DNA of 64,000 nucleotides from a virus (taxonomy: Duplodnaviria > Caudoviricetes). The stretch spans positions 7,247 through 71,246 of IMG/VR virus record IMGVR_UViG_3300033073_001149. One strand, given 5' to 3'. Made by a program: the position numbers and the translations under genes. This document shows, piece after piece, positions 28,638 through 39,748 of this stretch (the stretch's first letter is position 1; each line of letters starts with the position of its first letter). The notes under the pieces were generated by a model. That model searched no databases, had not been told where the DNA came from, and saw only the letters and a list, made by a program, of their open reading frames with translations.

Positions 28638-28826
28638 TTACTTACCACCCCAACTTTTATTTCTTGGTGGATATATAGTTTCGTTATTATTTGGCGGCTG
28701 CCCTGTCAAACTACTAATTATGCGCTTGCCATTACAAACAGGACAAGTCGGAGTTGCTGAAGTAGACAGCCTATTAGCTTGGTCTATACCTGTTCCTCCA
28801 CAGGCGGGGCATTTTTGAAAGCTCAT
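28638..28826 (-). CDS. Small DnaJ-type CxxCxGxG zinc-finger protein (62 aa)
   Basis: CPACGGTG and CPVCNGKR. Confidence 0.65.
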   Translation of the reverse strand: MSFQKCPACGGTGIDQANRLSTSATPTCPVCNGKRIISSLTGQPPNNNETIYPPRNKSWGGK

Positions 28827-28841
28827 TTTTTCTATTTTTAG

Positions 28842-29123
28842 TTAGGCTACTGCCCTGTTGTTAATACGTTTATTAATATTTCTATCCCAATCAGGTATTA
28901 CGGGCTTAGATTGCTGCTCCATAGTTTTGTTGATTAAGAGTTTTGCAGCATCTTGATTGCCCGTATAGTCAAAATAAGACCACAACTCACTTAAAGTCAT
29001 ATCCTCTACCTTTTTATCGGTATGAACACCCTCTACTTTTAATTCAAAAGAACCTGCTTCCATATCTAAAAAGTTTACTGCAATAATACAATATATAATT
29101 GATATGAACAAATAATTATCCAA
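28842..29123 (-). CDS. Hypothetical protein (up to 93 aa)
   Basis: ORF; start uncertain. Confidence 0.45.
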   Translation of the reverse strand: MDNYLFISIIYCIIAVNFLDMEAGSFELKVEGVHTDKKVEDMTLSELWSYFDYTGNQDAAKLLINKTMEQQSKPVIPDWDRNINKRINNRAVA

Positions 29124-29325
29124 GTACTATTGATTTAACCCCAACAGCATCGCAATACTTTATAAAGCTACCTGCTGTCCAATCCCTTTTGCCGTCCTCA
29201 ATATACCGTATCTGCATACGAGTTAGCCCTGATAATTTAGCAAACGCTGTCTTGTCTAAGCCCATAGCCTCTCGCTTGGCTTTTAATTTCTGCCCTATGT
29301 ATTCTCTTGTCATATATAAAAGCAA
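29116..29325 (-). CDS. XRE HTH regulator (69 aa)
   Basis: LKAKREAMGLDKTAFAKLSGLTRMQIRYIEDGK; TATCTTTG box just upstream on minus. Confidence 0.8.
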   Translation of the reverse strand: MLLYMTREYIGQKLKAKREAMGLDKTAFAKLSGLTRMQIRYIEDGKRDWTAGSFIKYCDAVGVKSIVLG

Positions 29326-29452
29326 AGATATAACTTATTTTAACACGAACAAATATTTATTCAGCCTGTTTTTCAACACCCCTACTACCAAGCCTTTCAA
29401 GAACGGGGTATCGAAATTTACGGGGGTTAGACAAATCAACCCGATGCCAAGC

Positions 29453-29478
29453 TAAACTATTCCAACAAATATAGTTTA
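29453..29478. repeat. 26-bp dyad site 1
   Basis: TAAACTAT-TCCAACAAAT-ATAGTTTA. Confidence 0.7.
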
Positions 29479-29741
29479 CATATAAACCACTTAATCAACC
29501 AAACCCCTACTCTCCCTAACTAAACCACACAAAATACTAACATAATGCAATAAACCCCTGTAAGACACGATAACCCCCTTAAAGCATAAAGACTAACGCC
29601 AAAAGCATTATCTCGCAGCAGGGAGTAGATAAATAGCGTAGAAAAGCAATACATAGAATGAACGCATACTCCGTAAAAGGGGTACGCCTTAGACTAAGCA
29701 AGTTTACAATATAGCTCATCGGTGTTTACTACTAAGTCTAT

Positions 29742-29767
29742 CCCCCCTTTCCCGCAACCCCTGCCCC
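29742..29767 (-). other. G-quadruplex-forming motif
   Basis: Minus strand GGGG-CA-GGGG-TTGC-GGG-AAA-GGGGGG in an AT-rich genome. Confidence 0.55.
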
Positions 29768-29980
29768 GCTTGGCAAGTCAAAAAGCAGCCTCCCGTACCC
29801 CTTAAATATACTTTGCCTTTCTGCTTTACTATCTATGTAGTCCGACGTGTAGGACGTTGTACATGGCAAAGGCTTGGCTGACTAAGACTAAGACTTGATT
29901 AGTAATGGTAAAGCCTTGCTTGCTCCTCTTGCTCTCTTGTTGGTTGGTTAATTGCTGCCTGATAGCCTAAGAATAAGGGG

Positions 29981-30006
29981 TAAACTATGTTAGTTGTATT
30001 AGTTTA
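29981..30006. repeat. 26-bp dyad site 2 (inverted relative to site 1)
   Basis: TAAACTAT-GTTAGTTGTA-TTAGTTTA; its reverse complement matches site 1 at 22/26 positions. Confidence 0.65.
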
Positions 30007-30629
30007 CAGGTAAAAACAAGCATCTATCCGTATAATTATAGTTGGTTTAGTTTTGTGCTGGCTTGTTACGTCTTATCTGTTATAGTATTATAATGGTATT
30101 AAAGCGTATTGTTTTGTTTGGTTCGGGTTCGTTGCTTGCCTTGTTTCAGGCTTTGCCTGTTATCTCTCTCCTCTCTCTTATAACTATTGTTTGATAATCA
30201 GATGTTGTTTAGTTGCCATCTCTTATATTATTAACCTTTGCTTTGTGGTTTGTATTGCCTTGTTGTTTATCGTGGTTTGTGGGATATGTTTTAGGGCTTG
30301 TTATATAGTTGTTTTTAGTGTTGGTTTAATGCTTTGTTTTGCCTCTTATGCTTAATATCTTCTTTTGTTGGTTTGTTACCTCTTAATGTTTGGTGGCGGC
30401 TTGTTGTCAATTTGTGGTTAGATAGTCAATTTTGGGTTATTCTCTTACACGGCTTTTTATCATTGGTTAATTTTTTATTTATAGTATTTACAGGCATTGT
30501 GTTATTTTTCTTGTCAATCTTTGCCTTGTTTCTTACATCTGTAAGGTTTAAATATTTATTGACTTTTGCAGTGTGTTTGGTTGGTTCATCTTTGCCTTAA
30601 CAAATTACAACAACTAATAATCAAACGTT

Positions 30630-31250
30630 ATGAATGTGCTAAATTTTCAATCTTTAATACAGGCAATTACTAAGCGCCCGTTAATAATTAGAACCCAAGA
30701 TGTAGACCTTACTTTAGGTGCTGAATATATTGTAGGCTTGTTGTTGCCAATAACACAACGCCCTGTATATTTTAAATGGAAATGCGCAACCAATGAAGAA
30801 AAGGTTTTAAAATCATTTATTACCGCCTTTTGCACCAAGTATAAGGAACCCAACCCAAGAGCCTACGATTGGAGCGCAAAAACATACGGCGACAAATATT
30901 TATGGGTTAATATGTCAGAAAAGGACAGGGAGTACGCATATATGCATCATAGCAGCAATATGCTTAGTAAGCAAGAGTTAATGAAACAAGTGGAGGCTAA
31001 TTTTCAAAGTGAAGATATAAAAGCGGCGTATCTTAAATATGGCTTTTATTCTACTAATTACGGATTAGGTATTTTTGCCTTGTTTAGCAGCCAAGCAGTT
31101 GACAATGCTATTAATGCCCTAGATAAGTTTTTAACCGATAAGTGCATCCCATTTAGTAATGAATTTAGCGACGCAAGGTGGGTTTATAGGTTTAAATTAA
31201 ACATAAGCAAAGAAGCTCACACAAAAATACTTGCAAACTTTACAGAATAA
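30630..31250 (+). CDS. Hypothetical protein, first gene of the plus-strand early cassette (206 aa)
   Basis: Long ORF; CATCTTTG/-7-like boxes upstream. Confidence 0.65.
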   Translation: MNVLNFQSLIQAITKRPLIIRTQDVDLTLGAEYIVGLLLPITQRPVYFKWKCATNEEKVLKSFITAFCTKYKEPNPRAYDWSAKTYGDKYLWVNMSEKDREYAYMHHSSNMLSKQELMKQVEANFQSEDIKAAYLKYGFYSTNYGLGIFALFSSQAVDNAINALDKFLTDKCIPFSNEFSDARWVYRFKLNISKEAHTKILANFTE

Positions 31251-38074: not shown

Positions 38075-38109
38075 AAAGCCCTCTAATTAACTTTAGGGGG
38101 CTATTTCTT
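38075..38109 (+). terminator. Terminator ending the early cassette
   Basis: AGCCCTCTAA/TTAGGGGGCT stem followed by ATTTCTT. Confidence 0.7.
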
Positions 38110-38171: not shown

Positions 38172-38197
38172 TAAACTATATAGGCTTTAATAGTTTA
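38172..38197. repeat. 26-bp dyad site 3
   Basis: TAAACTAT-ATAGGCTTTA-ATAGTTTA. Confidence 0.7.
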
Positions 38198-38243
38198 TCT
38201 TTCTAAAGAAAATCCTAATTACCATAGGGCAAAATAAACATAA

Positions 38244-39101
38244 CTATCTTTCCTCGTCTGAAATACCCAAGTCAGATAGCAAAATATCCAATGCCTGATA
38301 CATAGTTGTTTCTTTGGTTATGTCTATTAGTGGTTTTGATAACGGTATCTTCCTCAATGCTTTAGGTTCTTTTACCTCGTCTATTAGTTCACCTATATCA
38401 AAGGTTGGAACAGGCACAATATTGTCTACTTTATCGGGTCTTATATACACAAAACTATCCTGATTTCCAGTGTTTGATAAAAGCCTGTTGAGTGTTACCG
38501 AGAACTTTTGGTTCGTTAAAACACACAATCTGATAACGTGCAAAATAGTTAATTGGGTAGGCCACCTAAAATGGCTTGCTAAAGAGTTGCTGTTTCTGAA
38601 TTTAAGATATACTAAAAGCGATTTACCCGAAATGCCCAAAGTTTGGGTGTAGTAAATAAGCGGTGGGTTTCTTTCTATGTTATGATACGCCATAGGTTTT
38701 CTTATACCATACCTTTTTCGGTACTTAGCGTCCTCTTTAAGCATGAATTTCTTTGGCGGCTGTATCTTATAGTACCAAGCGGGTGTTTTCTTATTGTAGA
38801 TAGAGAACAAGAGGGCTATCATAACATCTAATCTAACCCCAACTATCCCGCATAGCTTAATGCAATAGTCAATAGTTAGTTTCTCTGGGCGCAGTATCTT
38901 GTTGGTAAAAACCGACCTGTTACCCTTAATGCTTGCTAATTTTTGCAGCTTGTCGGCACTTATATTCCTATACTTTGCCGAATAGTAGTAAAGAGGAACA
39001 GCGTATATTCTTCTTCCCTTTTGCCTTTCGCTTATATCAGGCTGTGCTTTTGGTAGTAGTCCTTGTTCTTTAGTATCTTGTCTATCGTTGTCGGCTGCCA
39101 T
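38244..39101 (-). CDS. Protein with two tandem HTH-like repeats (up to 285 aa)
   Basis: Repeats NISADKLQKL...RPEKLTIDYCIKLC and GISGKSLLVY...WPTQLTILHVIRLC; start overlaps the recombinase by 70 nt and is uncertain. Confidence 0.55.
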   Translation of the reverse strand: MAADNDRQDTKEQGLLPKAQPDISERQKGRRIYAVPLYYYSAKYRNISADKLQKLASIKGNRSVFTNKILRPEKLTIDYCIKLCGIVGVRLDVMIALLFSIYNKKTPAWYYKIQPPKKFMLKEDAKYRKRYGIRKPMAYHNIERNPPLIYYTQTLGISGKSLLVYLKFRNSNSLASHFRWPTQLTILHVIRLCVLTNQKFSVTLNRLLSNTGNQDSFVYIRPDKVDNIVPVPTFDIGELIDEVKEPKALRKIPLSKPLIDITKETTMYQALDILLSDLGISDEER

Positions 39102-39748
39102 TCTTTTGCTTTTCTTGGTTTGTAATTCTCCTCATTCATTTCACGGGCTATCACCCTAACCCCTTTGTTCTCTGATTTTTTGATAAAGATAGCTTTTAGT
39201 GCCGCTATCTCCGCTTCGTTGGGTATCAACCTGTCCTTTCTTTTTTTAAACCCATAGGGTAAATTCCCATAAACCAACCCCTGCTGTTTTTTGTAGTCAA
39301 GGGCAAACCTAATAGTCTTGGCCCCATCTTTGCGTTCCTTTTGGGCTATCATTGCGTGAATGGTGCTGCTCATTTCGTTTTCCTCATCTGTAATATCCAT
39401 ACCCTCGGCAATAGAGTATATCTTAATACCGTTTTTTCGGGCTAATTCAGCTATGGTTAACAAATCTATGGTGTTCCTTGATAGCCTACGTATATTGTAA
39501 ACAAGAACGTATTTTAGTTCGCCTCGTTTCTTGTTTTCCTTGATAAGTTCCAACACCTTTTGCAGCGATGGTCGTTTTGATATTGTACCGCCCGATATAC
39601 CCTCGTCTTTAAACACCGATATATCCTCTCTACTGTACGATAACACTTCAACCGCATATTTGTATAGTATTTCATCTTGGGCTGCAAGAGAAACGCCCTC
39701 TTTAGCTTGCTTGGTGGTAGATACCCTACCGTATAGTATTGCTTTCAT
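39032..39748 (-). CDS. Serine recombinase: catalytic domain plus recombinase domain, no zinc-ribbon/coiled-coil tail (238 aa)
   Basis: YGRVST (catalytic Ser), DEGISG...RP.L, VYNIRRLSRN, GNLPYGF, W..TTI..IL.N. Confidence 0.88.
   Translation of the reverse strand: MKAILYGRVSTTKQAKEGVSLAAQDEILYKYAVEVLSYSREDISVFKDEGISGGTISKRPSLQKVLELIKENKKRGELKYVLVYNIRRLSRNTIDLLTIAELARKNGIKIYSIAEGMDITDEENEMSSTIHAMIAQKERKDGAKTIRFALDYKKQQGLVYGNLPYGFKKRKDRLIPNEAEIAALKAIFIKKSENKGVRVIAREMNEENYKPRKAKEWQPTTIDKILKNKDYYQKHSLI

Follow-up and report, generated by a model that had tools for sequence, protein, structure and literature searches.

Recurring 26-bp dyads beside a short serine recombinase gene and its overlapping partner in a freshwater phage: a possible early-promoter inverton

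The phage and its divergent control region

The window analyzed here, a 64-kb stretch of DNA, comprises bases 7247-71246 of a 71,246-bp IMG/VR record classed as linear. It contained genes encoding a large terminase, virion proteins, a primase/helicase, an SSB-like protein, HNH and GIY-YIG endonucleases, and TnpB. Reading of the window sequence found Shine-Dalgarno sequences absent at the inspected start codons, and TAnnTTTG boxes exceed expectation on the main coding strand (44 vs 26 expected); both point, as hints, to a Bacteroidota-type host. Related phages were found in freshwater metagenomes, and the near-complete ones measure 66-77 kb, so that the CheckV completeness of 61% for the record is probably an underestimate. 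A tRNA search of the window gave none, no RNA family was detected with Rfam in the window at the gathering threshold or at 29200-30700 in E-value mode, and a blastn search with 28800-30700 found no match in GenBank phages. In the 40-64 kb part of the window, ten ORFs (199-729 aa) at 49-64 kb had no Pfam match at E <= 0.001, so that most proteins of the phage are uncharacterized. The 72-kb IMG/VR contig behind L011 (G001, also classed as linear) had terminase-like matches at both ends (16-666 and 70760-72355), which may reflect undetected circular permutation or overlap.

Two modules diverge from the region that carries the inverted dyads S1 (29453-29478) and S2 (29981-30006). The leftward module begins with a gene for a 65-aa HTH_3 (Cro/C1-type) protein on the minus strand (29116-29313), with a -7 box, TATCTTTG, ahead of it at 29323-29330. 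The rightward early module begins with the widely conserved gene of a 206-aa protein on the plus strand (30630-31250), which served as a synteny anchor. ORFs at 29325-30630 yielded only TTG-start, low-complexity hydrophobic translations arising from the T/G bias, and the interval was taken as noncoding. These results agree with an earlier reading of this DNA made from its letters only (hereafter, the sequence-only reading), according to which the region divides minus-strand from plus-strand modules. The same reading had reported a plus-strand switch from A/C-rich to T/G-rich sequence, and the skew values show this switch to be real (GC skew -0.77 and AT skew +0.33 at 29460-29579; AT skew -0.5 to -0.6 at 30060-30480). 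An A/C-rich tract of the plus strand, G/T-rich on the minus strand, lies just inside S1 (29440-29640), and a T/G-rich, ORF-free tract of the plus strand extends from the core element described below to the first plus-strand gene (29800-30600). The switch is not symmetric about the midpoint of S1-S2, and L010 and L043 share a similar pattern in which both divergent arms are G/T-rich on the sense strand.

S1 reads TAAACTAT-TCCAACAAAT-ATAGTTTA, with perfect arms and the center AC, and S2 is an inverted copy of it, TAAACTAT-GTTAGTTGTA-TTAGTTTA, with one arm mismatch (in TTAGTTTA) and the center GT. A third dyad with perfect arms and the center GC, S3, was found at 38172-38197. The dyads, to which no strand is assigned, have an 8-N10-8 layout of 26 bp. 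S1 and the reverse complement of S2 are identical at 22/26 positions, as had been noted before, and a repeat search likewise returned the pair as an inverted repeat of 27 nt with 85% complementarity and arms 500 nt apart. The spacers of the two sites agree at 7/10 positions when inverted vs 1/10 when direct (binomial p ~0.004), and the central dinucleotides AC and GT are the same when one site is inverted. In the search of the 64-kb window for recurring dyads (7-nt arms, spacers 4-16), TAAACTA-N12-TAGTTTA was the sole result. The whole 71-kb record held exactly three copies of the dyad and none of a backwards control pattern, and ~0.0015 perfect copies per 64 kb would be expected by chance from the base composition. 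Among the 2.9 million contigs of IMG/VR, 87 stretches had a perfect copy; a single site was present in all but one of the 80 stretches listed, and tblastn over these 80 loci found the recombinase or partner described below in none. The dyads are thus genuine and non-random, and their layout suits crossover sites of serine recombinases.

A structural role of the dyads as hairpins or terminators was rejected on account of their weak DNA folds (-2.9 to -4.0 kcal/mol) without a T-tract, which makes protein-binding sites the better reading. The right (inner) half of S1 carries a -7-like sequence, TATATTTG, on the minus strand at 29466-29473. S3 lies beyond the partner gene, 46 nt from its stop codon (47 nt when counted from the codon's first base), and it follows, at 70 nt, an intrinsic-terminator-like hairpin (38077-38102, plus strand) that ends the plus-strand module.

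Within the S1-S2 segment, a core of 137 nt on the plus strand (29735-29871) shows 77% identity, in the same orientation, to L043. This JGI contig has the gene order of the window (replication module, recombinase, partner, and convergent module with the 206-aa homolog), followed by a 1.3-kb noncoding gap and a divergent module. The core holds TAAATATACTTTGCC at 29803-29817, a rightward promoter-like box, so that the -7-like box pointed out previously near 29808 falls in a conserved block; the best-conserved part reads CCCGTACCCC-TAAA-nn-TACTTTGCCTTTCTGC. Similar TACTTTGCC boxes occur at other intergenic positions in the window, and the core element is a candidate rightward early promoter on these sequence features. 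A sigma-70 promoter scan gave counts not above those of shuffles. S1 lies 256 nt to the left and S2 109 nt to the right of the core, and S2 is ~170 nt downstream of the promoter-like box. The possibility that the S1-S2 segment is a MITE-like insertion was rejected, since the core is conserved in L043, which has no dyads. The inner 10-bp inverted pair that the sequence-only reading had described, AAGGGGTACG (29677) and CGTACCCCTT (29794), is present as written, but it folds no better than shuffles (z = -0.67) and its left arm is not conserved in L043; it was discarded as a functional element and is probably due to chance.

A short serine recombinase and its overlapping partner

The recombinase gene lies on the minus strand at 39032-39748, 9 kb from S1/S2, and encodes a protein of 238 aa comprising a Resolvase domain and the first half of a Recombinase domain (PF00239, E = 2.5e-26; PF07508, partial, positions 2-55 of 102). 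HTH_7, zinc ribbon, and coiled coil were all absent in the Pfam and architecture analysis. The best PDB sequence match was the TP901-1 integrase. Homologs down to 48% identity are 235-239 aa long and conserved to the last residue, and across six lineages the C-terminus is kept to its final residue. These results indicate that the short form is genuine and not a broken integrase. In addition, the motif Y6 G7 R8 V9 S10 (YGRVS) is retained and is invariant among the homologs, and from sequence comparison the recombinase is judged to be a real, conserved, catalytically intact protein. Its AlphaFold model (pLDDT 80) matches large serine integrases over ~246 alignment columns, across the catalytic and recombinase domains, and γδ and Tn3 resolvases also match. 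The enzyme is therefore a truncated large-serine type and not Mpi/Hin-like, and the likeness to Bacteroides Mpi that had been drawn earlier does not hold, with the gene also 9 kb away from the sites. In IMG/VR, the sole relative of the recombinase was 25% identical, and relatives of the partner were not found. No prophage copy was detected in 185,579 species genomes, the only match being a 3-kb phage-like contig binned into a MAG.

Compared with the large serine recombinases (A118/LI, TP901-1, Bxb1, and φC31), the enzyme has the same catalytic domain, helix E, and first half of the recombinase domain, as judged from Pfam and integrase-DNA structures, and a conserved site lies next to its gene. 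In contrast, it stops at 238 aa, without zinc ribbon or coiled coil; its site is 26 bp and nearly palindromic, whereas theirs are ~50 bp with outer zinc-ribbon motifs; and neither prophage nor attB evidence was found here. In the Listeria phage integrase, the recombinase domain is a resolvase-like HTH core with a contact area of 13 bp, helix H lies on positions 9-11, and the zinc-ribbon motif is at positions 16-24 (PMC3783163). Given a core contact of 13 bp per half-site and the missing zinc ribbon, the recombinase fits 2 x 13 = 26 bp, and an enzyme ending after this core would have its specificity in the outer part, where the dyad arms occupy positions 6-13. By this geometric argument, the 26-bp layout favors the recombinase as the direct reader of the dyads.

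The partner gene, on the minus strand at 38244-39101, encodes 285 aa with two repeated helical HTH-like domains, and it overlaps the recombinase gene by 70 nt. Its homologs comprised only six cluster representatives among 1.8 billion, and the leads that connect it with Cro/C1-type HTH folds are weak. The overlap of 67-70 nt is kept in three lineages (39032-39101; L043:7929-7995; L133:3051-3117), and the overlapping N-terminal extension of the partner is conserved at the protein level. This arrangement suggests translational coupling and leaves room for a minor recombinase-partner fusion product, possibly made by frameshifting. As the main reading, a frameshifted large integrase composed of the 238-aa and 285-aa parts was rejected, because the recombinase C-terminus is conserved and the 285-aa ORF has no Cys-rich zinc ribbon; no Pfam match was found in this ORF either.

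Dyads and gene pair in relatives

Relatives with the gene pair carry a dyad after the partner gene, with perfect 8-bp arms and a spacer other than that of the window, in L031 (recombinase 95% identical), in L041 (81%), and in the L034/L040/L133 lineage (75-76%). In these three lineages the dyad lies ~47-50 nt past the partner gene. Perfect arms with differing spacers indicate selection on the arms only, as expected of a dimer-binding site. In L043, which is syntenic and shares ~72% DNA identity in the gene-pair region, both genes are intact, S1 and S2 are missing, and the dyad at the S3 position is half decayed (left arm intact, right arm 4/8). An intact dyad is thus not essential for retention of the genes. 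A search with a positive control found no recombinase in five relatives at a greater distance, of which three are at least 91% complete, and a recurring dyad was found in none of the loci of distant relatives examined (these five and others). Therefore, the motif belongs with the recombinase/partner module. The recurring dyad of L023 was set aside as a post-gene hairpin that is not analogous. The neighboring HTH_3 protein had no homolog in 5.8 billion proteins, while the dyad recurs in three other lineages; hence the co-occurrence of dyads with an adjacent HTH_3 regulator was not observed, and HTH_3 is not the conserved binder.

The centers of the sites vary. At the sites syntenic to S3 the central dinucleotides are GC, GT, CA, and CC, and that of S3 itself is GC, which precludes pairing with S1/S2. 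In the L034 lineage, the recombinase ORF itself contains another perfect TAAACTAT-N10-ATAGTTTA dyad (L034:5949-5974, L040:997-1022, L133:2852-2877), which encodes LNYKKENSL there and lies 1.1 kb upstream of the conserved downstream site. The centers of these two dyads, AA (intragenic) vs CA (downstream), do not match, so that they cannot be partners and look regulatory. On their central sequences, then, not every dyad can be a recombination partner.

Additionally, the S3 spacer resembles the flipped form of the syntenic spacers in L031 (9552-9577; 8/10 flipped, 4/10 direct, p ~0.0006), L041 (2294-2319; 6/10 vs 3/10), and L043 (8822-8847; 7/10 vs 3/10). In close relatives aligned on both sides, the S3 flanks are collinear despite the reverse-complemented spacer. 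A recombinase cutting at the center cannot produce such a flip; a neutral origin by template switching from one 8-bp inverted arm to the other is plausible. Since site polarity can change in this way, the matching centers of S1 and S2 carry less weight.

Copies of the dyad are also clustered in G008, an unrelated complete phage of 64,871 bp with terminal repeats. Within 130 bp of one intergenic region (L077:5782-5912), GTAAACTAT-N10-ATAGTTTAC occurs twice in perfect and once in degenerate form, and homologs of the recombinase and partner are both absent from that genome.

Inversion of the early control segment and alternative readings

The dyads are probably recognition sites of the recombinase/partner module, as the fixed position of the motif beside the gene pair in three related lineages suggests. 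That S1 and S2 form an invertible promoter switch of this module is a more tentative proposal, to which we incline without giving it even odds. Our full reading, at a probability of roughly 0.3, is that a zinc-ribbon-less large-serine derivative and its overlapping tandem-HTH partner read the 26-bp dyads and flip a 0.5-kb early-promoter segment of a freshwater phage of ~70 kb, as a virus-encoded developmental inverton that would redirect early transcription between two divergent modules. Each 26-bp site would be occupied by a dimer of the recombinase, 13 bp per subunit, with the HTH core of the recombinase domain reading the outer 8-bp arm and the catalytic domains placed over the 10-bp spacer to cut at the central 2 bp. 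S3 would serve the module as its conserved home site. S1 and S2, as two additional copies with opposed polarities and the same non-palindromic AC center, would enclose the conserved early promoter-like element that faces right in the divergent control region. If they recombined, the 528 bp between their centers would be inverted, so that the promoter-like element, now directed at the plus-strand early module, would point to the minus-strand module instead, and TATATTTG would move from the inner half of S1 to S2, where it would face right.

The arrangement resembles the serine invertases (Hin/hix, Gin/gix, Cin, and Pin, and Mpi of Bacteroides) in its two inverted, imperfect 26-bp dyads with a common non-palindromic 2-bp center, in the short segment between them with a predicted promoter-like element, and in the serine recombinase with an intact active-site serine encoded by the same genome. 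The hix and gix sites are likewise 26 bp. It differs from them in that the recombinase has a large-serine-type domain core instead of a small HTH_7 one, that its gene lies 9 kb away and not adjacent, that there is a third site with another center, and that an overlapping partner gene is conserved; moreover, an enhancer was not identified and inversion was not observed.

The orientations observed were uniform. Two Logan contigs (L003 and L004, from SRR32380202), identical in sequence to the window, have the window orientation, one running through S1 as far as 29889 and the other beginning at 29868 and running through S2; the assembly thus breaks at 29868-29889, inside the segment and not at the dyads. 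In L043, whose layout is ancestral-like, the core is oriented as in the window with respect to its two flanks. A flipped copy was not seen in the record, the two Logan contigs, or L043, which is a weak test as it covers assembled sequence only, and no other contig with the left flank plus the S1 half-site, in either orientation, was found in the JGI metagenome or IMG/VR collections. The comparison with relatives that the sequence-only reading had proposed thus yielded no alternative state. Of its suggestion that an inverton is acted on by a serine recombinase, the 238-aa enzyme is real and the dyad is conserved by the gene pair, but a flipped copy was not found. Further points that count against inversion are the 9-kb distance of the recombinase gene, the non-matching centers of S3 and of the intragenic L034 dyad, the retention of both genes in L043 with no intact dyad, and the dyad cluster of G008, a phage that has neither gene.

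To our knowledge, known phage inversion systems vary tail fibers. If S1 and S2 do invert, this locus would clearly exemplify a phage that uses DNA inversion to switch its own early transcription; viral invertons have so far been only putative (PMC13501310). If the dyads are the targets of the recombinase, they would belong to a compact system of 238 aa and near-palindromic 26-bp sites, possibly with a separate subunit for specificity or directionality. Its architecture would stand between the small invertases/resolvases and the large integrases, a position relevant to the way in which the latter acquired additional domains, and the system might be turned into a genome-engineering tool with a small footprint.

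Nearly level with inversion, although itself no better than a possibility of about one in three at most, is repression by the same binder without DNA rearrangement, in which the dyads would be operator or roadblock sites bound by the partner or by the recombinase as a repressor. At S1, the bound protein would occlude the leftward -7-like box; at S2, it would act on the rightward promoter-like element, by blocking it or looping it out; and at S3, it would keep convergent transcription from entering the recombinase operon. The Tn3 and γδ resolvases act as repressors at res. With these enzymes the present system shares inverted DNA-binding-domain motifs around a spacer, sites between divergent genes, and a possible dual role in recombination and repression; res, however, consists of three adjacent subsites with different spacers, whereas here single sites with the same 10-bp spacer length lie 0.5 kb and 8 kb apart. 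Repression agrees with the placement of the sites in a divergent control region, with TATATTTG held by S1 on the minus strand, S2 downstream of the conserved promoter-like box, and S3 between the plus-module terminator and the partner stop codon. The intragenic dyad of L034/L040/L133 would suit autoregulation, the centers vary among sites and the S3 spacer flips without harm, a single orientation was observed, and the partner has weak leads to Cro/C1-type HTH folds. Against it, the 18-bp spacing between half-site centers is unusual for compact HTH dimers and standard for serine recombinases (cf. PMC3783163). L043, moreover, has the partner gene but no operators, S2 and S3 overlap no recognizable promoter, and the similarity of the S1 and S2 spacers in the inverse orientation only would be superfluous. 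If the dyads are only operators, they would be a lineage-specific regulatory add-on of modest interest.

A less likely alternative is that the recombinase is an integrase or a Cre/lox-like enzyme for resolution or circularization, with S3 as its only working site and S1 and S2 as fortuitous or decaying copies. A site beside the recombinase gene is the classic arrangement of attP, res, or lox, and S3 has it; only the S3 position is conserved across lineages, and S1 and S2 are absent in L043. In Cre/loxP of phage P1, too, short inverted arms surround an asymmetric spacer beside the recombinase gene, and site polarity decides between inversion and deletion, but Cre belongs to the tyrosine recombinases, the arms of loxP are 13 bp and its spacer 8 bp long, and P1 has a single site. 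However, the perfect arms of S1 and the single mismatch of S2 have been kept in fast-diverging noncoding DNA, which argues for selection, and S3 has decayed in L043 with both genes intact. The survey of species genomes, with its single phage-like contig and no prophage, also speaks against an integrase.

It is improbable that the dyads are sites for a host-encoded regulator exploited by several unrelated phages. The G008 array, in a phage without recombinase or partner, is what this explanation would account for, but with millions of phage operator motifs a single chance match is plausible, and neither the fixed position of the site beside the gene pair in three relative lineages nor the lack of the motif in same-group relatives without the module would be expected.

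Least probable is that the region is a replication origin or a packaging (physical) end, the other option raised by the sequence-only reading, with the dyads marking it for an initiator or terminase. The strong strand-composition switch, the 1.3-kb ORF-free region between divergent modules, and the Logan assembly break would fit, as would the contigs of many relatives, from independent assemblies, whose ends fall in the T/G-rich tract ahead of the 206-aa homolog (first bases of L005-L009; ends of L013, L014, L015, L017, and L021), but we tentatively attribute these breaks to strain-level variability or odd composition and not to physical ends. No positive evidence for an origin or end emerged: the record reads straight through the region, which is internal in relatives that are 91-100% complete and whose contigs end elsewhere, a repeat search found neither iteron-like direct repeats nor long palindromes, the dyads form only weak hairpins and are missing from relatives with the same noncoding region, and S3 lies 8 kb away, beside the recombinase.

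Short elements outside the dyads were also shared with relatives. Between the partner stop codon and S3, GCCCTATGGTAA (38219-38230, minus strand) is invariant in 4/4 aligned sequences though its surroundings have diverged. Upstream of the first rightward gene, ATTGACTTTTG at 30558-30568 recurs at L005:267, L006:253, L007:377, and L008:252, in relatives whose 206-aa protein is 57-80% identical, and it possibly serves as a further early promoter or as a leader element.
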